Of a DNA stretch of 64,000 nucleotides, positions 2,586-60,978 are shown piece after piece; the first letter of the stretch is position 1; the number at the start of each line of letters is the position of its first letter. The notes beneath the pieces were generated by a model. The model made no database searches and was not told the origin of the DNA. It saw nothing but the letters and a program-made list of their open reading frames with translations. A program made the translations under genes and the position numbers. The DNA is from Atribacterota bacterium (GTDB taxonomy: Bacteria; Atribacterota; Phoenicimicrobiia; Phoenicimicrobiales; Phoenicimicrobiaceae). The stretch covers positions 1,195 through 65,194 of the forward strand of contig DASRMF010000060.1 of assembly GCA_035648055.1 (NCBI GenBank). The letters are read 5' to 3'.

Positions 2586-3245
2586 TTATTTATTATTGTC
2601 TATCACTGTTAATTCTTTTATTCTCTGACTTATTATGTTTAATGCTTCTTTTTGATATGTTTTATCTTTTATATTATGTTTATCAAAGTACTGAGGAACA
2701 CCGAAGTAAACGGTTATTTTATTTTTAAATAAAATAGGGAATGTTTTTCCGTGAGGATATATTTTATGCGTACCAATAATTCCTACCGGTATGATTGGTA
2801 CGCCCGCCTTCATAGCAATTTTTACTACTCCTAATTTTAATTCTTGTAATTCGCCGTTTAATGAACGTGTCCCTTCGGGGAATATGCCTAACATTCTTCC
2901 CTCTTCCAAGATACTCATAGTTTTTTTAAAAGCAGGCATATCAATTTTTTTTCTGTCTACGGGGAAGGCATTTAGGTTTTTTAAAAAAATACTGCTAAAA
3001 ATATTATTAAAAACTTCTTTTTTAGCTATAAAATTTATCTTTCTTTTGGTCGCTGCGCCTAAAACGACTGGGTCTAAATAACTTACATGGTTCGAAGCAA
3101 TTATCACACCTCCCCTTTCGGGTACATTCTCAGTTCCAATCACTTCCATTCGCCAAAATATTTTTAGTATTAACCAACAAATAGCCTTTACTACATAATA
3201 GAACATATAGTTTATCCTAACTTTTAAATTCGTCGTTTTGGCCAT
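2586..3245 (-). CDS. plsC: 1-acyl-sn-glycerol-3-phosphate acyltransferase
   Basis: 219 aa. Acyltransferase motifs NHVSYLDP and FPEGTRS. Confidence 0.85.
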   Translation of the reverse strand: MAKTTNLKVRINYMFYYVVKAICWLILKIFWRMEVIGTENVPERGGVIIASNHVSYLDPVVLGAATKRKINFIAKKEVFNNIFSSIFLKNLNAFPVDRKKIDMPAFKKTMSILEEGRMLGIFPEGTRSLNGELQELKLGVVKIAMKAGVPIIPVGIIGTHKIYPHGKTFPILFKNKITVYFGVPQYFDKHNIKDKTYQKEALNIISQRIKELTVIDNNK

Positions 3246-3289
3246 TTAACCAGGTAACCAATTAACAAGTTAACTAATTCTCGTAGGAA

Positions 3290-4172: not shown

Positions 4173-4225
4173 ACCCGGGATTGCTTCCCCTGCTTTCGCT
4201 GGGGCAGGCTTGCTTCGCAATGACT
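4173..4225. other. GC-rich structured island (gcttcCCCCtgctttcgctGGGGcaggc hairpin plus flanking ttgcttc repeats) between the ATPase operon terminator and the phosphoesterase gene
   Basis: A local GC spike in a ~30% GC genome. The CCCC/GGGG and GCTT/AGGC stems can be read from the sequence. Confidence 0.35.
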
Positions 4226-4240
4226 AAAAAAATTGATATA

Positions 4241-10595: not shown

Positions 10596-10650
10596 CTATT
10601 TCTAATTAATGATAAAGTTTAACTAATACTCCTAAGTCTTATCTTCCTTA

Positions 10651-10673
10651 CGCGATACGCGATACGCGATACG
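10651..10673. repeat. Tandem heptamer repeat (CGCGATA)x3 inside the element TCTTACGC(GATACGC)nGAATT
   Basis: Read from the sequence. Homologous copies occur at 55668-55688 and 60957-60978, and a decayed copy near 51634-51660. Confidence 0.8.
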
Positions 10674-15256: not shown

Positions 15257-15407
15257 TTTTACTCCAAATTAAATTAGTCGTTAACGTATCGTATTGCGTT
15301 AGGAAAATCAGGATTCAGTTATTGTTTATCAGTTTGTTAAGGTTTCTGAATTCTTAATCAAGTAACCAACTAACTAGCTAACTTTTTCTATGATTTAAGA
15401 AATATAT

Positions 15408-15438
15408 CTCATTACTTGTTACTTATTACTTATTACTG
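15408..15438. repeat. Partial copy (right arm, TTACTTATTAC heptamers) of the TAAGTAA/TTACTTA repeat family, overlapping the dxr stop codon
   Basis: ctcattacttgttacttattacttattactg matches the right arms at 32190-32214 and 57770-57810. Confidence 0.6.
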
Positions 15439-16601
15439 GGCTTTATATTTTTACAAAAATTTAAAGCCCTTTCCCTGGCCCAGTAATCAGCATCTAAAAT
15501 ATCGTTAATATTGGGATTATATTTTGCTTTATGTTCTTTCATTGTGTCTTGAATAATTTGAGGAATTGCTAAAAAACCTATTTGATTATTTAAAAAAGTA
15601 TCAACTGCAATTTCGTTTGCGCCATTTAATACTGCTGGCATTGTTCCCCCAATCTCTAATGCCTGGTAAGCAAGTTTAATACAGGGGAATTTATTAAAAT
15701 TGGGTTTCTTAAAAGTTAATTGTCCTATTTTGGTTAATTCTAAGCGTGGAAAGTTATTAATAGTTCTAGTAGGATAAAATAAAGCGTACTGGATGGGAAT
15801 TTTCATATCGTGCTCACCTATTTGAGCTAAAATAGTACCATCTGTAAATTGAACCATTGAATGCACATAACTTTGGGGGTGAATTACTATTTCTATCTTA
15901 TTAGCCGGTATATTAAAAAACCACCTTGCTTCAATTACTTCTAATCCTTTATTCATCAAGGTTGCCGAATCAATGGTAACTTTTTTCCCCATTTTCCAGG
16001 TGGGATGATTCAGCGCGTCCTCCGCTGTTACATTTTTTAGAGCGGCTTCGGTAAAATTATAAAGCGCGCCCCCGGATGCCGTCAGTATAATTTTCTCAAC
16101 ACAATCTTTTTTTTCATTCTTTAGACATTGTAAAATTGCGCTATGTTCACTATCTATTGGTATAATTTTTGCATTTTTAGATATTGCTTCCCTCACTAAT
16201 AATTCGCCACCTACTACCATTGCTTCTTTGCTGGACAAAGCAATTCTTTTCCCTTTTTTTACTGCCTCAAAAGTAGGTATAAGAGATGCTATCCCGGTGA
16301 TAGCAACTACAATAATATCAGCTTCTTCTAATGTTGCTATATTTATTAATCCGTTAGTCCCCCATAATATTTTAATATTATTTTGTTTGTTTAAATTTTT
16401 TTTCAAATTCATGGCAGCTATTTCATTTTTAACTACTGCTATTTTAGGTTTATAAAAACTTATCTGCTCCTTAAGCAATTTTGTATTTTCCCAGCCGCTT
16501 AGACCCACTACTTCAAATTCATTTGAATGTTGTTTTAGAACTTCCAGAGTTTGCTGCCCTACTGAACCCGTTGAACCTAATATTACTATTTTTTTTCTCA
16601 T
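15426..16601 (-). CDS. dxr: 1-deoxy-D-xylulose 5-phosphate reductoisomerase
   Basis: 391 aa. N-terminal NADPH-binding motif ILGSTGSVG. Confidence 0.92.
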   Translation of the reverse strand: MRKKIVILGSTGSVGQQTLEVLKQHSNEFEVVGLSGWENTKLLKEQISFYKPKIAVVKNEIAAMNLKKNLNKQNNIKILWGTNGLINIATLEEADIIVVAITGIASLIPTFEAVKKGKRIALSSKEAMVVGGELLVREAISKNAKIIPIDSEHSAILQCLKNEKKDCVEKIILTASGGALYNFTEAALKNVTAEDALNHPTWKMGKKVTIDSATLMNKGLEVIEARWFFNIPANKIEIVIHPQSYVHSMVQFTDGTILAQIGEHDMKIPIQYALFYPTRTINNFPRLELTKIGQLTFKKPNFNKFPCIKLAYQALEIGGTMPAVLNGANEIAVDTFLNNQIGFLAIPQIIQDTMKEHKAKYNPNINDILDADYWARERALNFCKNIKPSNK

Positions 16602-18189: not shown

Positions 18190-18271
18190 CTATAAAAAAA
18201 CCCCCTTAAAAATTATATTAATACAAAATAGTTTAATATAGATTAAAATGAGAAGGGGGTTTTATTATTTA

Positions 18272-18442
<171 letters not shown>

Positions 18443-19761: not shown

Positions 19762-19787
19762 ATTTTTATCCTTCGGTATATTAACTA

Positions 19788-19817
19788 GCGTATAGCGTAC
19801 AGCGTTTAGCGTATAGA
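19788..19817. repeat. Tandem 7/8-mer repeats AGCGTAT-AGCGTAC-AGCGTTT-AGCGTAT (CGATACG family)
   Basis: Read from the sequence between pyrH and tsf. Confidence 0.75.
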
Positions 19818-21333: not shown

Positions 21334-21363
21334 ATAAAAGAAAGTATCGGGTATATGGTATCG
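21334..21363. repeat. Tandem heptamers AGTATCG-GGTATAT-GGTATCG-AGTATCG (CGATACG family)
   Basis: Read from the sequence between hslU and rpsB. Confidence 0.75.
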
Positions 21364-21420
21364 AGTATCGAGTTAAGAAAAAAATGACTAACTTAATCAA
21401 ACAATTGGTGAATCGTTGAA

Positions 21421-28281: not shown

Positions 28282-29637
28282 CTATTTCCTTCCTTCCTTT
28301 TTTTTCGCTAAGTTAATGATTACAGGCGAACCTTCAAACCCAAATGTTTCATAAAATTTATTTTCTAAATATCTCTGGTAAGAAGCATACATTAATTTAG
28401 GATTATTTACAAACAATAGAAATTTAGGAGGTCTTATCCCCATTTGAGTAGCATATTTAATTTTTAATGTATTCCCTCTTACATATTTTGGGGTATTTTT
28501 AAAAATAACTTCTTTTATAAAAGCATTCAATGCCGGAGTAGGGATTTTTTTACTATATTGTAAGGAAACTTCTTTAATTTTTGAAATAATTTTATCAATA
28601 TTGTAACCTGTTATAGCAGAAGTCATTATCACTGGAGGGTTTTTCATAAAAGACAATTCATATCTTATCTCATCAATAAACAATTCTTTATCTATATTAT
28701 CTTTAATTAAATCGAATTTATTTAATATTATTATACAGGCTTTTCTTTCATTTTGGATAAAATTTGCCATTTTTTTATCTTGCATACTTACTCCTTGAGT
28801 AGCGTCCAATATCAATAACACTATATCTGAATTATGTACCGCTTCAAAGGTTCTTAACGTACTGTAATATTCAACATCCTCTTTCGGTTTCGCCTTGCCT
28901 CTCAAGCCTGCGGTATCGATAAATATTAACTTTAGTAAATCATGTTTAAAAATTATTTCAATAGCATCTCTGGTGGTGCCTGGTTGTTCGCTGACTATAA
29001 TTCTATCTTCTCCTAAAATACGATTTAACAAACTTGATTTTCCTACATTGGGTTTTCCAATAATTGATATTTTTATAATGTCCTCTTCTTCTTCCGGTTC
29101 TGCTTCTGCTTCTGGAATACAGGATACTATTTTATCTAATAAATCATCAACCTTTAACCCGTGTTCTGCTGAAATAATATAGGGATCTCCGAATCCCAAT
29201 TCGTAAAATTCATATAATTTTAAGTCACTTCCCGTTACATCTCCCTTGTTAGCTACCAGGATACTTGTTTTATTTTTTTCTCTAATTGCTTTAGCCACCT
29301 TAAAATCATCCGGATTTATTCCCTCTTTGATATCGACCAATAATATAATTAAGTCTGCTTCTTCAATAGCCAATTTAGTCTGAAGAGTTATTTTTTTTTG
29401 CATTTCTTCTTTTTTTATAAAATCCACGCCTCCGGTATCTACCAGAATAAATTGCTTTCCTTTCCATTTACATTCTGCATATATCCTATCTCTGGTAATT
29501 CCGGGTTCGTTCTCAACAATAGCGGTTCTTTTTTTAGTGATTCTATTAAATAGGGTCGATTTCCCCACATTTATCCTTCCGACAATAGCAACAACAGGTT
29601 TTCTCAAAATATAACTCCTAACTTTTATAAAATACAA
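28282..29637 (-). CDS. der: GTPase Der (EngA)
   Basis: 451 aa with two tandem GTPase domains (GRINVGKST, GKPNVGKSS) and a KH-like C-terminus. The N-terminus may be ~12 aa shorter than the ORF. Confidence 0.9.
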   Translation of the reverse strand: MYFIKVRSYILRKPVVAIVGRINVGKSTLFNRITKKRTAIVENEPGITRDRIYAECKWKGKQFILVDTGGVDFIKKEEMQKKITLQTKLAIEEADLIILLVDIKEGINPDDFKVAKAIREKNKTSILVANKGDVTGSDLKLYEFYELGFGDPYIISAEHGLKVDDLLDKIVSCIPEAEAEPEEEEDIIKISIIGKPNVGKSSLLNRILGEDRIIVSEQPGTTRDAIEIIFKHDLLKLIFIDTAGLRGKAKPKEDVEYYSTLRTFEAVHNSDIVLLILDATQGVSMQDKKMANFIQNERKACIIILNKFDLIKDNIDKELFIDEIRYELSFMKNPPVIMTSAITGYNIDKIISKIKEVSLQYSKKIPTPALNAFIKEVIFKNTPKYVRGNTLKIKYATQMGIRPPKFLLFVNNPKLMYASYQRYLENKFYETFGFEGSPVIINLAKKKEGRK

Positions 29638-29680
29638 AGTAATAAGTAATGAGCTTAAATTTTCTAAATCGTAAAAGCAG

Positions 29681-30340
29681 TTATTTATTCATAATATTTT
29701 TTATTTTCCTTATGGTCATTTCAGGATTTGCACTTTTAGATATGATTTGACCAGCCACAATTACTTCTGCTCCGGCTTTGATTACCTTAGAAATATTATC
29801 TAAATTTATTCCGCCATCAACTTCTAAACTTATCAATTTTTTTTGATTATCTATTATTTTTCTCGCCCTTCCTATTTTAGTAATCATCTCCGGTATAAAT
29901 TTTTGCCCGCCAAAACCCGGATTAACGGTCATTAATAATAATATATCTATTTTATTAATTAAATATTCAATAACACTTAAAGTTGTTGCCGGGTTTAGAG
30001 CAATGCCGGATTTTACACCAGCATCATTGATAGTTTGGATAAGTTTGTCAAGGTGTTTAGATGTTTCGTAATGTACAACTATAATATCTCCACCCGCATC
30101 AATAAATGATTTAATCTGATTCTCCGGTTTTTCTACCATCAGATGAACTTCCAAAGGAAGAGATGTTATGCTTTTTATTGATTCTACTATCCTGGGGCCA
30201 AAAGAAATATTCGGTACAAAATTTCCATCCATAATGTCTAAGTGAAGTAAGTCTGCCCCTCCGTTTTCTATTTTTTTTAATTCTCTTTCCAAATGGGCAA
30301 AATCTACATCCAAAATTGAGGGAGCTAATTTTATTGTCAT
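29681..30340 (-). CDS. rpe: Ribulose-phosphate 3-epimerase
   Basis: 219 aa, RPE family. Confidence 0.9.
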   Translation of the reverse strand: MTIKLAPSILDVDFAHLERELKKIENGGADLLHLDIMDGNFVPNISFGPRIVESIKSITSLPLEVHLMVEKPENQIKSFIDAGGDIIVVHYETSKHLDKLIQTINDAGVKSGIALNPATTLSVIEYLINKIDILLLMTVNPGFGGQKFIPEMITKIGRARKIIDNQKKLISLEVDGGINLDNISKVIKAGAEVIVAGQIISKSANPEMTIRKIKNIMNK

Positions 30341-31934: not shown

Positions 31935-31987
31935 AAAAACACCTACTTTTTTAGAGAATAGTATCGAGTATGGATACAGTAACAAGT

Positions 31988-32017
31988 GATGAGTAATGAG
32001 TGATAAGTAATAAGTTT
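31988..32017. repeat. Purine-rich heptamer array GTGATGA-GTAATGA-GTGATAA-GTAATAA (TAAGTAA family, forward arm)
   Basis: Read from the sequence. Confidence 0.7.
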
Positions 32018-32041
32018 CGTGTTGCAAGTTTTCGCATTTCA

Positions 32042-32120
32042 TTGATAATTAGTTAATTAGTTAGTTGGTTACCTGGTTAATTGGTTATTAAATCAATGCA
32101 TAGGAGTTAACTAACTAATC
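32042..32120. repeat. TTAACYAA-family degenerate tandem repeats (ttagttaattagttagttggttacctggttaattggttatt ... gttaactaactaatc)
   Basis: Read from the sequence. Relatives occur at 3246-3280, 15350-15390, 48875-48925, 50385-50450, 54825-54910, 55755-55805 and 57648-57700. Confidence 0.7.
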
Positions 32121-32136
32121 AAAAAAGGATGTAACG

Positions 32137-32242
32137 TGTGATAAGTAATCTGTAATAGGTGTTTGTTTTTATAATTTCCGAAATTTAAGCTTATCACTTA
32201 TTACTGTATTTTACTATATACTAGATACTAAATACTATATAC
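32137..32242. repeat. Dyad-symmetric intergenic element, copy A
   Basis: Left arm gtgtgataagtaatctgtaatagg, a spacer containing gtttttataat, then right arm cttatcacttattactgtattttac and tail actatatactagatactaaatactatatac. GTGATAAG and CTTATCAC are exact complements. Confidence 0.7.
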
Positions 32243-32615
32243 TTAAGTTACCATCAAGGTAAAAAGCATCCTTAATATGTTTTATTCTTTTTATATCTTT
32301 AAGGTTAGAGATACTGATCAATATTACATCAAAGCAATAATTATTTTTCCAAAGATTGTATTTAGCCAAATAGCATAAAGCATTTTTAATTATTTTTCGT
32401 TGTTTATTATAGTTTATTGCTTCTTCAGGATATCCAAACTTATCAGAACGCCTTGTTTTTACCTCCACAAAGACAATATCACCTTTATATTCACTGATAA
32501 TATCTATTTCTCCTAAGAAAGTATGGAAATTCCTCTCTTTTATCTTGTAACCTTTAGTTTCTAAATATTTACAAGCTAAATCTTCGCCGTATTTTCCTAT
32601 ATTTATATTATCCAT
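32235..32615 (-). CDS. yraN: UPF0102 family endonuclease YraN
   Basis: 126 aa. Conserved GEDLACKYLETKGYKI ... EIDII ... VEVKTR motifs. Confidence 0.85.
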   Translation of the reverse strand: MDNINIGKYGEDLACKYLETKGYKIKERNFHTFLGEIDIISEYKGDIVFVEVKTRRSDKFGYPEEAINYNKQRKIIKNALCYLAKYNLWKNNYCFDVILISISNLKDIKRIKHIKDAFYLDGNLSI

Positions 32616-43595: not shown

Positions 43596-43635
43596 TTCAA
43601 TTAAGGGTCGGATAACTCTCCGACCCTTAATTGAA
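43596..43635 (-). other. Perfect 17 bp stem / 6 nt loop hairpin (TTCAATTAAGGGTCGGA taactc TCCGACCCTTAATTGAA) between acpP and fabF
   Basis: The two arms are exact reverse complements. The hairpin is not followed directly by a U-tract, so it is a candidate RNA processing or stability element, or a partial terminator, rather than a canonical terminator. Confidence 0.6.
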
Positions 43636-48826: not shown

Positions 48827-48978
48827 AGCGTATACCTCCTTTTGTCATAATATAGTTTAATTGTATATCTCTGTTCGTTAAATAGTTAATTGGTTAACCA
48901 ACTAACAGGCTAACTATCTTGATAACTTTAAAAGTATATAATTTCTTATTGAAAAAAGCAAATTATTTTTTAATTTTT

Positions 48979-50328: not shown

Positions 50329-50396
50329 CTTTCTAATTTTCTTCTTTTTACTATAAACTTGCTAACTTATTTACTTATTTTTATTGTAATAATTGG

Positions 50397-50442
50397 CCGA
50401 TTGACCAATAAACCAATTCTCCGATTGACCAATTTGCCAATT
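50397..50442. repeat. 22 bp tandem direct repeat CCGATTGACCAATwwrCCAATT x2, upstream of ackA and downstream of pta
   Basis: 50397-50418 and 50421-50442 are near-identical. A related CCAATTCTCC(A/G)ATT unit occurs at 57650-57690. Confidence 0.75.
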
Positions 50443-50571
50443 AAATTAGTAGACAGCGTAATTCGTATCTCGTTAAGAATTATTTAGTCGGTAAGTGTTA
50501 TAATTTTTTCTGGCTTCTGATTTCAATCTTTTTGCTCGATACGCTAAACGCTATCCGCTAATTTTATATAT

Positions 50572-54716: not shown

Positions 54717-54905
54717 TTTTCCCTCCTTAAAATACAGACAGTATCGAGTATCGCGTGAAGAAAATTAGATTTCAAATTGCTAAACGTTTTATCATATGCA
54801 CCCCTAATTTTCTCTCACTTCCAATTTCTTAGCCAGTTAACTAACCAATTTATTAATTGTATACGCTCTACGCTAATTCTCCTAACCATTTAACTAGTTA
54901 ACTAA

Positions 54906-55463
54906 TTAAATATTAACATATTCATAAAAAGATAGAAAGCACTCTCCGTATCTTCTTTGATTATTTAACCTCAAATTAGCTAATTTTTCCATAATTTTTT
55001 CCTTTTTGTAATGTTGAGCAATCACCAAACCATTGTGCCTCAATATAGGGAATTTTGATATCTCTAATAGAGATATGTTTACCAGTCCTTTGTCGTAAGG
55101 AGGGTCAAGAAAGATAAAATCCAATAAATAATTTTTTTTAGCTAATAGTTTTAAACCGGACAAAAAATCTATCTTGTAAATTATAGCATTTTGGCTATTT
55201 TCTGTTTTTTCTAAATTATCTTTTATAATTTTTATGCATTTTTGTTCTTTTTCAATAAAGATTGCTTTTTTTGCTCCCCTGCTTAAGGCTTCGATTCCTA
55301 CTGCACCGGTGCCTGCAAATAGATCTAAAAAACAGGTTTCATTGACAGATGTTCCTAAAATATCAAATAAAGCTTCCCTCACCTTTTCAGAAGTAGGACG
55401 AACAGATAAATCCTTAGGCGATTTTAATATATTACCCTTATTTTTTCCAGCAACAATTCTCAT
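54906..55463 (-). CDS. rsmD: 16S rRNA (guanine966-N2)-methyltransferase RsmD
   Basis: 185 aa with a DPPY motif and SAM-binding LDLFAGTGAVGIEALSRGA. Confidence 0.88.
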   Translation of the reverse strand: MRIVAGKNKGNILKSPKDLSVRPTSEKVREALFDILGTSVNETCFLDLFAGTGAVGIEALSRGAKKAIFIEKEQKCIKIIKDNLEKTENSQNAIIYKIDFLSGLKLLAKKNYLLDFIFLDPPYDKGLVNISLLEISKFPILRHNGLVIAQHYKKEKIMEKLANLRLNNQRRYGECFLSFYEYVNI

Positions 55464-55478
55464 AATTTCACCTCAACT

Positions 55479-55501
55479 CGTATTGCGTATCGAGTATCGT
55501 G
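55479..55501. repeat. Heptamer repeats CGTATTG-CGTATCG-AGTATCG (CGATACG family, reverse orientation)
   Basis: Read from the sequence. Confidence 0.75.
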
Positions 55502-55536
55502 TAGTAGTTATTCAATTACCCTGTCAGCAAGTCAAA

Positions 55537-55582
55537 TTAGTTTTTAGTTACTGGTTTTTAGTTTTTAGTTGTTAGTTTTAGA
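55537..55582. repeat. Degenerate tandem repeats of GTTTTTAGTT / TTTTTAG (about 5 units)
   Basis: ttagtttttagttactggtttttagtttttagttgttagttttag. Confidence 0.75.
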
Positions 55583-55667
55583 TAAAGAAATCAATTTACG
55601 ATTTTCGGTTTTCTTAACCAACTATCCAACTATACATGCTATCTGCTATTTTTCTTAATGCAATGCT

Positions 55668-55688
55668 CGATACGCGATACGCGATACG
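55668..55688. repeat. (CGATACG)x3 tandem heptamer repeat, homologous to 10651-10673
   Basis: cgatacgcgatacgcgatacg followed by aaatt. Confidence 0.8.
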
Positions 55689-55730
55689 AAATTGGCTTCT
55701 GAATTCTGACTGCTGGCTCCCTTATTCTTT

Positions 55731-55760
55731 CTTCTTCTTCTTCTTCTTCTTCTTCTTCTT
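55731..55760. repeat. Perfect (CTT)10 trinucleotide microsatellite (~13 units including the imperfect 5' flank)
   Basis: cttcttcttcttcttcttcttcttcttctt is a homopyrimidine/homopurine tract, ~145 bp upstream of rpmB. Confidence 0.9.
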
Positions 55761-55902
55761 TCCTTAACTAATTAACCGGGTAACCAAATAACCAGCTAAC
55801 CAAATGTCGTGAATTTTAAATAATTACTTGCCAAGACTTCATATAATATGATAAAATAGCTACTGTTAAATATTTTTTATAACTAACAGGAGGAAATATA
55901 AA

Positions 55903-56930: not shown

Positions 56931-57636
56931 TTTGTTTTTCCTCTGTCTTTTTTTTGCTTTTTATTATCTTTAAAATCTCATCTTTAACTTCCTCAATGCT
57001 TTTTTCTGTAGAATCTATAAGAATAGCATCTTTTGCCCTAATCAAAGGAGCATATTTTCTCTTGCTGTCGATTTTATCTCTCTGTACTATCTGTTTCTTA
57101 ACTTCTTCATAATCCAAATTATAACCTTTATCTATAAGTTCTTTATATCTCCTCTTAATTCTTTCCTCCTCAGAAGCAGTAAAATATAATTTTAAATCTG
57201 CTTTTGGTAAAATTACCGAACCTATATCTCTACCTTCCATTACAATATTCCCTTTTTTGGCTAATTTTCTCTGTAAATGAATTAACTGTTTTCTTATTTT
57301 GGGTAGTCTAGCTATTTGAGAAACATTTCGATCAATTTTTGGATCGCGTATTTTTTCAGTTACATCTTCTTCGTCAACAAAGATATGGTAATAATCTTTC
57401 AAACTATTAGTATTTGTTTTTTTGATAGTTATGCAGGTGTTTGAAACTATATCGGAAATCATATTTTCATCGTTTATGTCAATATTATTTTTTAAAACTT
57501 TCCAGGTTATCGCCCGGTAAATTGCTCCTGTATCAATATATGTATGGCCCAATTCACGAGCAATTAATTTACCCATAGTACTCTTACCTACGGCAGCCGG
57601 TCCATCTATTGCGATTATTAAACCATTTTTTTTCAT
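56911..57636 (-). CDS. cmk: Cytidylate kinase. Start re-assigned to the ATG at 57636.
   Basis: MKKNGLIIAIDGPAAVGKSTMGK gives a P-loop at the N-terminus as in Cmk. GGAGAA RBS lies upstream. The 40 aa ORF-track extension is a translation of intergenic repeat DNA. Confidence 0.85.
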   Translation of the reverse strand: MKKNGLIIAIDGPAAVGKSTMGKLIARELGHTYIDTGAIYRAITWKVLKNNIDINDENMISDIVSNTCITIKKTNTNSLKDYYHIFVDEEDVTEKIRDPKIDRNVSQIARLPKIRKQLIHLQRKLAKKGNIVMEGRDIGSVILPKADLKLYFTASEEERIKRRYKELIDKGYNLDYEEVKKQIVQRDKIDSKRKYAPLIRAKDAILIDSTEKSIEEVKDEILKIIKSKKKTEEKQIENNII

Positions 57637-57700
57637 AAATTTATCAATTCTCCAATTAACTAATGAACCAATTCTCCAATTTACCGATTGACTAACAATG

Positions 57701-57826
57701 GATGTAATGTGTAATATGTGATAAGTAACATGTAATAAGTAACCGTTTTTACACATTCATAAATATAATCTTATTACTCATTACACATTACTTATTACTG
57801 TATTTTATACTCGATACTGTATACTG
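57701..57826. repeat. Dyad-symmetric intergenic element, copy B, homologous to 32137-32242
   Basis: Left arm gtaatgtgtaatatgtgataagtaacatgtaataagtaac, a spacer containing gtttttacacattcataaatataat, right arm cttattactcattacacattacttattactgtattttatac, and tail tcgatactgtatactg. The 12 bp match gtaatgtgtaat/attacacattac and the 11 bp match gtaataagtaa/ttacttattac are exact complements. Confidence 0.75.
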
Positions 57827-58552
57827 CTAAACAATTTTCTTCAGACTTTTAATTTCTTCTTTATTTAAATACCTATACTCTCCCGGTTTCACGTCCTTTA
57901 AGGAAATAGGACCTGTCTGAATTCTTCTCAGTTTTAAGACAAAATGTCCAATGAATTCAGCCATTTTTCTAATCTGTCTTTTCTTTCCTTCTTTTATTTT
58001 TATTTTTAATATGGCATTTCCGTTAATAGTGTTTAACAAGTAAATACTGCAGGGAGACAACTTATAATTGTTTTTTAAAGTTACTCCTTTTGATAAAAAT
58101 TTTAATTTTTCAGAGGAAGGGATCCCTTTTAATTTAACAATGTAAACTTTTTCTACTTCTTTTGATGGATGAGTTAAGGCGTAGGTCAACTCACCGTCAT
58201 TAGTAAAGATTAATAATCCTTCAGAATCATAATCTAATCGACCAACCGGATGCACTCTTTCTTTTACGTCTTTCAGTAAATCCATCACTGTCTTTCTGCC
58301 AAAAGGGTCAGATAAAGAAGTCAAATAACCTTTAGGCTTATTTAGCAATATATAACTATAATGCTTATCCTCTTTATATTTTACTAATTTATCATCAACT
58401 TTAATAATATCTTTTTGAGGATCAACCTTAGTTCCCAACTCAGTAACGACAAAGTTATTTACCTCAACTCGACCCTGAAGGATAAGTTCTTCACATTTTC
58501 TCCGGGAAGCAATCCCTGCTCCCGCCAAATATTTTTGTAATCTTTCAATCAT
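57827..58552 (-). CDS. rluB: Pseudouridine synthase (RluB/RsuA family)
   Basis: 241 aa. N-terminal S4 domain (LQKYLAGAGIASRRKCEELI) followed by a RsuA-type catalytic domain. Confidence 0.88.
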   Translation of the reverse strand: MIERLQKYLAGAGIASRRKCEELILQGRVEVNNFVVTELGTKVDPQKDIIKVDDKLVKYKEDKHYSYILLNKPKGYLTSLSDPFGRKTVMDLLKDVKERVHPVGRLDYDSEGLLIFTNDGELTYALTHPSKEVEKVYIVKLKGIPSSEKLKFLSKGVTLKNNYKLSPCSIYLLNTINGNAILKIKIKEGKKRQIRKMAEFIGHFVLKLRRIQTGPISLKDVKPGEYRYLNKEEIKSLKKIV

Positions 58553-60913: not shown

Positions 60914-60927
60914 CACGATGCATCGTG
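60914..60927. promoter_or_regulatory. Perfect 14 bp palindrome CACGATGCATCGTG between the M50 protease gene and trpS
   Basis: Read from the sequence, in a GC-rich local context. Possible protein-binding site or hairpin. Confidence 0.3.
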
Positions 60928-60956
60928 TTCCTACTTTTTAATCCTAATTTTCTTCA

Positions 60957-60978
60957 CGCAATACGCAATACGCGATAC
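60957..60978. repeat. (CGCAATA)x2-CGCGATA heptamer array, copy of the TCTT(C)ACGC(GATACGC)n element
   Basis: tcttcacgcaatacgcaatacgcgatactaatt is homologous to 10640-10676. Confidence 0.8.

Follow-up and report, generated by a model that had tools for sequence, protein, structure and literature searches.

A family of intergenic inverted-repeat elements with heptamer-array arms in Atribacterota, probably a REPIN/BIME/MITE-like dispersed repeat

Among the intergenic repeats of bacteria, the BOX elements of Streptococcus pneumoniae have the structure boxA-boxB(n)-boxC, with modules of 45-60 nt; the Correia/NEMIS and RUP elements are bacterial miniature inverted-repeat transposable elements (MITEs) of about 100-150 nt with inverted-repeat ends; and the STRR sequences of cyanobacteria are tandem heptanucleotide repeats. 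Dispersed heptanucleotide-repeat elements that are GC-rich and occur also inside genes have been described in Geobacter metallireducens (PMC2700814). Repetitive extragenic palindromes (REPs) are imperfect palindromes of 20-40 bp, one end of which bears the tetranucleotide GTAG or CGTC (PMC3733652), and REPINs are abundant extragenic elements in which an inverted doublet and its spacer form a hairpin (PMC3116915). Here we describe a dyad element that is present in two spacers, rluB-cmk and yraN-comM, of a 64,000-nt stretch of contig DASRMF010000060.1 (hereinafter, the window). The contig comes from a genome (GCA_035648055.1) of the Atribacterota, a phylum of bacteria from subsurface sediment. 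The two stretches are probably copies of a lineage-specific, non-coding dispersed repeat that resembles REPINs, bacterial interspersed mosaic elements (BIMEs) and MITEs and turns over among spacers.

The RluB protein encoded in the window shares 92% identity with its counterpart in Atribacteria SCGC AAA255-G05 and 80-91% with those of many Atribacterota metagenome-assembled genomes, and because of these identities the host is taken to be a JS1-type member of the phylum. The GC content of the genome is 32%. Of the 65 predicted genes in window positions 1-64000, 63 share one strand and, because nearly all lie on the minus strand, the elements are read here on that, gene-sense, strand; with such extreme co-orientation, orientation relative to genes is inseparable on this contig from orientation relative to replication.

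A previous sequence-only reading of the window pointed to two homologous dyads in these spacers, and the homology is borne out: positions 32130-32204 align with 57710-57784 over 75 nt at 76% identity, the two copies find each other in nhmmer searches (E 7e-4 and 1.6e-4 in 296 kb), and a hidden Markov model (HMM) built from 20 copies matches 57690-57806 with an E-value of 8.6e-28 and 32120-32211 with 1.5e-13. The exact complements quoted in that reading, GTGATAAG/CTTATCAC and GTAATGTGTAAT/ATTACACATTAC, are found in the sequence, and Pfam agrees with its names for the flanking genes; its 'right arm' is the conserved 5' arm of the element on the gene-sense strand. In both window copies, the stop codon of rluB or yraN is followed by a short GTAT-type heptamer array, the junction (T)AAAATACAG, a GTAAnnn/GTGAnnn array, an AT-rich core of ~28 nt, an inverted nnnTTAC/nnnTCAC array, ACATCC, and octamers of the TTAGTTAA or AATTGGnn type, arrayed up to the ribosome-binding site (RBS) of the next gene (Table 1).

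The family extends far beyond these two copies. Searched with nhmmer and the 20-copy HMM, 1.08 Mb of related Atribacterota DNA yielded 122 matches, 60 of them full-length, representing 53 unique full copies; a seed scan of metagenomes with a 20-nt pattern from the 5' end of the element gave at least 120 loci. An unbiased sample, composed of 232.5 kb of GTDB Atribacterota loci fetched via RluB and the 64-kb window, contains 6-8 and 2 full copies, respectively, that is, about one per 30 kb; single-sequence nhmmer detected full copies in 8 of the 21 RluB-fetched loci. In a control set of 405 kb of syntenic Clostridia and other loci, the family HMM had no matches at E<=10. None of the 53 copies lies inside an open reading frame (ORF). 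The first 8 copies, from the 21 loci, were all co-directional with rluB, but this apparent orientation bias vanished in the larger sample, where 16 copies between co-directional genes are sense and 19 are antisense; hence the element is strictly intergenic and occurs in either orientation.

The unit of the family is about 105-120 nt long. Its 5' boundary is sharp: information content jumps at TAAAATACAG and then decays gradually through the 3' octamer array. The consensus consists of 2-5 GTAAnnn heptamers, a core of ~28 nt (GATTAAATTTCWGAAATTATAAAAACAGG), 3-6 inverted nnnTTAC heptamers, ACATCMCTTGYTGGTTAG and the octamer array. In an alignment of 48 copies (A2), which was used also for consensus folding, per-copy folds and column conservation, conservation reaches 90% or more in most columns from the junction through the 5' arm and core; the 3' arm varies more, and the indels are of 7 or 14 nt, that is, multiples of 7. 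In particular, the copy at 32.1 kb shows a 14-nt (two-heptamer) gap in its 5' arm. The arms, which are 14-42 nt long, AT-rich and not self-palindromic, lengthen and shorten by slippage in 7-nt steps. The 5' end, CAGTAAYAAGTAAT, resembles the reverse complement of the 3' end (GATGTAATGTGTAAT), so that terminal inverted repeats are present, and the flanks of the copies are conserved as well (5' flank TAAAATA, 3' flank CACTTGYTGG) but are not direct repeats of each other. Many loci pass from the 5' arm into other modules, for example, a GTTnCAA heptamer array and then a GC-rich hairpin, and the 5' arm is therefore common to several composite subfamilies. One loop subfamily, that of the 57.7-kb core (ATTATATTTATGAAT...), recurs in the nrdR-nrdD, hrcA and dnaK-dnaJ spacers of other contigs and co-varies with a particular downstream array type, which indicates that the copied unit comprises arm, core, arm and array.

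Comparison of orthologous spacers shows that the element has been gained, lost, truncated and inverted over the times that separate species. The rluB-cmk dyad is present in the window, in the near-identical strain L087, whose copy is nearly identical, and in the distant L018 (RluB 71% identical), where it has another core subtype and lies at another position in the spacer; in 15 closer relatives it is lacking, and the spacer contains other modules or, in L009, consists of 68 nt only. The yraN-comM spacers of the close relatives L065 and L154 carry, in sense orientation, a composite of a GTAT array, a GTAA array, a GTTnCnn module and an octamer array; the window has a composite of this type inverted, beside the dyad. 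Variation is seen even between near-identical strains: before cmk, the window has 7 octamer units in tandem (57640-57699) and L087 has 15 (1053-1170), a difference that resembles variable-number tandem repeat variation, here in a 5' untranslated region (5'-UTR).

Such turnover is combined with considerable sequence conservation. At fourfold-degenerate sites of rluB, the window is 58-75% identical to relatives with 81-88% RluB identity and just 39-47% identical to L018 and L016 (L018, 39%), whereas the 5' arm and core show a mean identity of 83% among copies from different species and loci, and the L018 copy is 92% identical to the family consensus. Because conservation of the element exceeds that of neutral rluB sites, old copies decaying in place are ruled out. 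Two possibilities are left: turnover from a constrained family sequence, which keeps the copies young, or purifying selection on each individual copy. Because position is not conserved, turnover is favored. The same comparison bears on the view that these are AT-rich, low-complexity products of slippage that merely look alike. A genome with 32% GC and arms that are tandem repeats evolving by slippage are in line with that explanation, but it leaves unaccounted for the conservation of the non-repetitive 28-nt core and the junctions across species with saturated fourfold sites, the HMM E-values down to 1e-28 with the control loci devoid of matches, and the 19 period-7 arrays of the window, where block shuffles have 4.2 on average and 8 at most; we consider chance similarity hardly credible.

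Inverted arms naturally suggest a structured RNA. The 57.7-kb copy, for which the sequence-only reading proposed a hairpin, indeed has a strong one (minimum free energy (MFE) of -29.7 to -31.9 kcal/mol, z -3.1 to -3.5); for the 32.1-kb copy by itself the proposal finds little support (z -0.4 to -1.4), because two heptamers of the 5' arm have been lost. The entire 301-nt yraN-comM spacer (31945-32245), in contrast, forms a single nested hairpin (MFE -56 kcal/mol, z -5.05) thanks to the composite inverted next to the dyad. Across the 48 aligned copies, the median fold z is -2.5 on the sense and -2.3 on the antisense strand; about half of the copies, including 32120-32212, are weaker than z -2, and some have no fold. 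The suggestion that these are a family of small structured RNAs did not survive the analysis of the aligned copies. RNAalifold recovered no consensus pairs from the 48 sequences, and near-identical 117-nt copies adopt MFE folds in differing registers. In two registers, offset by 14 nt, 82% and 93% of cells are paired, compared to 19-54% when one side is slid by 1-3 columns; covariation in these registers is not above chance, the score being reached by 370 and 137 of 500 shuffles, respectively. Nor do the arms of a copy co-evolve: the duplex energy of own arms is -18.2 and that of foreign arms -18.6 kcal/mol (p 0.86). In a search of Rfam 15, the only window match at gathering scores was a tRNA-Arg, with neither spacer matched at E<=1.

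The corresponding functional model, that each copy is an independent gene with its own promoter and yields a structured regulatory RNA, could draw on the sharp conserved 5' boundary beside a TATAAA-like box (GTATAAAATACAG), the conserved 'loop' sequence and the independence of orientation. Nevertheless, given that consensus pairs and above-chance covariation are lacking, that near-identical copies fold in different registers, that there is no -35 element, that promoter-like matches are at chance level with no terminator, and that many copies are truncated or joined to other modules after the 5' arm, small-RNA genes appear very improbable. Several specific assignments fail. A promoter cassette does not fit, as promoter-like matches do not exceed those in shuffles and the TATAAA/TATAAT boxes of the core lack, on inspection, a -35 element at 16-18 nt. 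No terminator-like sites were detected in either spacer, and the stem is AU-rich, with a loop of about 28 nt and a CTTGYTGG tail, unlike the GC stem, 3-8-nt loop and U-tract of an intrinsic terminator. A hairpin made strand-specific by G-U pairs is contradicted by the similar MFE on both strands, the sense strand being the more stable in 22 of the 48 copies. By inspection, the heptamers do not fit the GTTRRRY/RYYYAAC pattern of integron attC sites, and the flanking genes are housekeeping ones; likewise, TTATCACAT does not fit the DnaA box TTATNCACA.

The pairing potential itself is real, and it forms the basis of a different explanation, namely that the elements are punctuation selected by the host, hairpin arrays retained for their action in cis, as REP/BIME reportedly are. 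On a polycistronic mRNA, they would protect 3' ends, direct RNase III-type processing or dampen read-through in either orientation; on DNA, they would be binding sites for gyrase or nucleoid proteins. Apart from the median z-values and the two registers with 82-93% pairing, this explanation agrees with the folding of whole spacers far beyond shuffles (z -5.05 and -3.1), with the neutrality of orientation, which suits a symmetric hairpin, with the location of copies within conserved operon junctions, with conservation above neutral sites, and with the GTAT arrays positionally conserved after the rluB stop codon. However, close relatives manage the same operon junctions without the dyad, about half of the copies fold no better than z -2 or not at all, compensatory changes and arm-to-arm co-evolution are not seen, no terminator signature is present, and conservation is higher in the loop than in the 3' arm, the opposite of what a hairpin-only function predicts. 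Punctuation as the primary explanation is thus unlikely, although it is compatible with the dispersed-repeat interpretation.

Conservation of sequence rather than structure could also be taken to mean that the arrays and the core, with its AATTTCnGAAATT palindrome, bind a lineage-specific DNA- or RNA-binding protein, in effect a 'written' intergenic vocabulary. The invariance of 5' arm and core columns at 90% or more, the inverted pairs with fixed polarity, the recurrence of a small vocabulary of units across species and the density of period-7 arrays (56.8 per 100 kb in the Atribacterota loci vs 7.4 in comparably AT-rich Clostridia loci) all speak for recognition of this kind. Against it, there is no known candidate protein, changes in the palindrome half-sites are asymmetric, the number of units varies freely, and presence at a given locus is dispensable. 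A CodY-box-like role of the core palindrome as a general operator was rejected because the other spacers of the window show no enrichment of the palindrome: its single exact match lies in the element itself, and the five matches with one mismatch are all within predicted genes. Altogether, protein recognition seems a distinctly improbable explanation.

The dispersed-repeat interpretation that we favor accounts for the combination of intergenic location, turnover and conservation as follows. A constrained family sequence would be the source from which copies are constantly renewed or the standard to which they are corrected, and no individual copy would be retained for a local job. Spread may proceed via a trans-acting enzyme or via recombination or gene conversion between tandem arrays, which every copy has at its flanks; the latter route is plausible in view of the cassette-like replacement between conserved arrays and the composite inversion. 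A transcript or a single DNA strand across the element would form a long, imperfect, AU-rich hairpin in one of several registers, which may incidentally affect mRNA processing or stability but would be dispensable at any one locus. Two vehicles of spread were discarded: the six matches on viral contigs are chance matches inside coding sequences, and no element is found on these contigs; and the DNA between paired copies (L101, L078) carries gltX, an rlmN-like gene and other housekeeping genes, unlike a composite transposon.

Several observations weigh against this interpretation. No transposase, REP-associated tyrosine transposase (RAYT) or autonomous partner was seen in the 1.08 Mb, and a phmmer search with an approximate IS200 TnpA query had no match among 1,847 ORFs, a test that is weak and confined to partial genomes. 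Copies that share a contig (L084, L014) resemble one another no more closely than copies of different genomes do and thus give no sign of a recent burst. Boundary analysis revealed no target-site duplication at the flanks of the copies, the 3' boundary being diffuse. The greater conservation of the core and 5' arm compared to the 3' arm could equally mean a host-selected protein-binding site. Finally, GTAT-type arrays, which follow the rluB stop codon in at least ten Atribacterota relatives, are kept at this orthologous position in relatives of 73-92% RluB identity, and such persistence hints at selection on at least some modules.

Among the known systems, the closest are REPINs and REP-BIMEs (PMC3116915, PMC2817692, PMC3733652): these are likewise extragenic, high-copy, non-coding inverted doublets with a spacer, which form hairpins of ~100 nt in single-stranded DNA or mRNA, occur in either orientation and in mosaics with other conserved motifs, and encode no transposase of their own. 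The differences are substantial. The arms of the Atribacterota element are AT-rich tandem arrays of degenerate heptamers, as opposed to a 20-40-bp GC-rich palindrome; its consensus ends lack GTAG/CGTC, the spacer and 5' arm are its most conserved parts, and no RAYT was found; and REPINs and REP-BIMEs are found in Proteobacteria, a different phylum. Ordered, alternating modules form a mosaic, as in BIMEs, but none of them is a REP; the resemblance is therefore one of analogy, not membership. Like MITEs, the element is small, non-coding and multicopy, with terminal inverted repeats, non-orthologous sites and presence/absence polymorphism; its size, the inverted repeats at its ends, its dispersal among spacers and the insertion polymorphism seen between relatives recall Correia/NEMIS and RUP in particular, from which it differs in having no visible target-site duplication, no known cognate insertion sequence, internally repetitive ends and a diffuse 3' boundary. 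The suggestion of a dispersed MITE/REP-like element is therefore sustained as to kind, on the grounds of the many intergenic copies, non-orthologous sites, presence/absence differences and inverted-repeat arms; membership in the REP or classical MITE families is not, and, as no transposase or RAYT was found in the 1.08 Mb and no target duplication is visible, we do not file the element under either. As in BOX elements, modules are dispersed between genes, an internal tandem module varies in number, and there is hairpin potential; unlike in BOX, the modules are of 7-8 nt and unrelated sequence, many module types are combined, and inverted array pairs are nested. The STRR and Geobacter elements are similar in consisting of tandem heptamers (4-6 units) in intergenic regions, with several unit families, some palindromic, but differ in taxa and unit sequences, and in the Atribacterota the arrays are, unlike the Geobacter elements, strongly enriched outside ORFs and are linked by conserved junctions into ordered composites.

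A wider system was overlooked in the sequence-only reading: tandem 7- and 8-mer arrays form a pervasive mosaic across the intergenic regions of the lineage, and the dyad is a single module of this mosaic. Tandem arrays were called with Tandem Repeats Finder (TRF), flanking genes with Pfam. The commonest period in the 1.08 Mb is 7 (699 arrays), followed by 8 (260), and 86% of these arrays lie outside ORFs although ORFs make up 85% of the DNA, an enrichment of about 35-fold; in the window, 24 of the 30 period-7/8 arrays fall in the non-coding 8.5%. Array density peaks in the clade whose RluB identity is 80% or more. The main units, AGCGTAT, AAGTAAT, ATCTCGT, AGTATCG and AATTGGTT, recur across species and are equally frequent in both orientations. 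Where arrays of one type face each other, the forward-then-reverse order prevails over all loci (15:1, 8:2 and 9:1 for three array types), the fixed polarity expected of defined elements with fixed ends. One could go further and view the dyad as one 'word' in a lineage-wide intergenic grammar, in which most of the longer JS1 spacers are built from a small vocabulary of 7-/8-mer arrays, conserved junctions and nested inverted pairs, and which is read by a dedicated nucleic-acid-binding or processing system, such as a periodic array-binding protein or a double-stranded-RNA-processing route that punctuates long co-directional operons; the element would then be more than selfish DNA. This is a speculative proposal, and a rather doubtful one.

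Two of the other family members in the window had been noted from the sequence as lone arms. The one beside the dxr stop codon is a truncated copy with an arm and core but no second arm: its core-like spacer runs straight into an octamer-type array, and CAGTAA in its first heptamer supplies the stop codon (15426-15428) of dxr, identified by the Pfam DXP reductoisomerase domain. The lone left arm near 32 kb is an arm of the second, oppositely oriented composite. A further partial copy, which had escaped notice, consists of AAAATACAAAG, two heptamers and core, ends at the rpe stop codon, and is 78% complementary to 32164-32212 over 49 nt.

Table 1. Coordinates of the element copies, their parts and other repeats in the window
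Feature	Position	Strand	Evidence
Full dyad copy, rluB-cmk spacer	57690-57806	-	nhmmer HMM positions 1-117, E 8.6e-28
57.7-kb copy, junction AAAATACAG	57798-57806	-	
57.7-kb copy, 5' arm, 4 GTAAnnn heptamers	57770-57797	-	
57.7-kb copy, core, loop subfamily ATTATATTTATGAATGTGTAAAAACGG	57745-57769	-	
57.7-kb copy, 3' arm, ~6 nnnTTAC heptamers, then ATTGTTAGTC	57700-57744	-	
GTAT-type heptamer array AGTATAC AGTATCG AGTAT, adjoining rluB stop (57827-57829)	57807-57826	-	sequence
Octamer array AATTGGnn/AATCGGnn, 7 units, into cmk RBS and ATG at 57636	57640-57699	-	TRF 57652-57689, period 8
Dyad copy, yraN-comM spacer	32120-32212	-	nhmmer E 1.5e-13, HMM positions 2-114
32.1-kb copy, junction	32204-32212	-	
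32.1-kb copy, shortened 5' arm, 2 heptamers	32190-32203	-	
32.1-kb copy, canonical core	32160-32189	-	
Palindrome AATTTCCGAAATT in core of 32.1-kb copy	32173-32185	+	
32.1-kb copy, 3' arm, then TTTTTTG	32127-32159	-	
AGTATnT heptamer array over last yraN codons and stop (32235-32237)	32212-32243	-	TRF period 7, 4.6 copies; ORF end
Short octamer-type array GATTAGTTAGTTAAC after dyad	32106-32120	-	sequence; pairs with part of 32046-32090 in fold
Second composite element, opposite orientation	31960-32090	+	TRF; nhmmer 31974-32008 (+), E 2.3e-4
Second composite, GTAT array and ATACAG	31960-31979	+	
Second composite, GTAAnnn/GTGAnnn array	31980-32014	+	
Second composite, GTTnCnn module	32015-32043	+	
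Second composite, octamer array	32046-32090	+	
Truncated copy	15362-15440	-	nhmmer HMM positions 5-82, E 1.4e-6
Truncated copy, 5' arm, 4 heptamers	15411-15437	-	TRF
Partial copy antisense to genes, rpe-der spacer	29629-29680	+	nhmmer 29637-29689 (+), E 1.5e-4
Example array sites	3242-3279, 10649-10673, 19786-19816, 21343-21373, 48880-48920, 50391-50560, 54740-54922, 55470-55810, 60956-60978		
GC-rich hairpins (also in many relatives, e.g. L061, L073, L143, L152)	60921-60941, 43600-43630, 4195-4235		

Most window spacers longer than ~80 nt hold arrays of 7-mers (GTATCGC/AGCGTAT/CGATACT) or 8-mers (TTGGTTAA/AATTGGnn). In the rpmB-rsmD spacer, a GTATCGC array (55473-55497) and its inverted partner (55660-55685), ~165 nt apart, make up a long-range stem around other arrays, and a perfect (TTC)10.7 / (GAA)n run lies between two arrays at 55729-55760. 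A recurrent 5'-UTR module, (CAC)TAACGACTAATTT(AATT)GGRG...ATG, forms the RBS of unrelated genes, in the window at 15262-15290 and 57637-57665 and upstream of cmk in L006, L009, L014, L015 and L022, so that the repeat system also provides translation signals. At the other end of genes, the first array unit supplies the last codons and the stop of yraN (32235-32243), dxr (15426-15431) and genes in L075, L129, L144, L147 and L149; GTAATAA and TTAGTTAG arrays contain stop codons in all three frames. Small GC-rich hairpins (GGCACGATGCATCGTGCC, GGGTCGGATAAATCCGACCC, GGACAGGCGTCTCGCCTGTCC, GGGGCGTATTGCATACGCCC) recur in Atribacterota spacers, often just after heptamer arrays, and may constitute a separate REP-like family. 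An inverted repeat, AAAACCCCCTT...AAGGGGGTTTTTTT, at 18192-18268, with a loop of ~50 nt, follows a small ferredoxin-like 4Fe-4S ORF (about 18270-18440) and has the appearance of a terminator, with a loop of exceptional size.

Atribacterota JS1 rank with the most abundant deep-subseafloor bacteria, and we know of no description of their non-coding DNA. No account of repeats in Atribacterota was found, and the searchable genome papers, including comparative ones on JS1, are silent on intergenic repeats. The family is previously undescribed, and with it the REPIN/BIME concept comes to include a distant phylum and another arm design. The family also raises the question of which enzyme or selective force holds a 28-nt core and a heptamer arm ~83-90% identical while silent sites are saturated. 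For the biology of the lineage, the modular repeat system explains fragmented assemblies and long operon spacers, array copy number differs between near-identical strains and thus offers strain-level markers, and the repeats are recombination substrates that invert and swap spacer cassettes.

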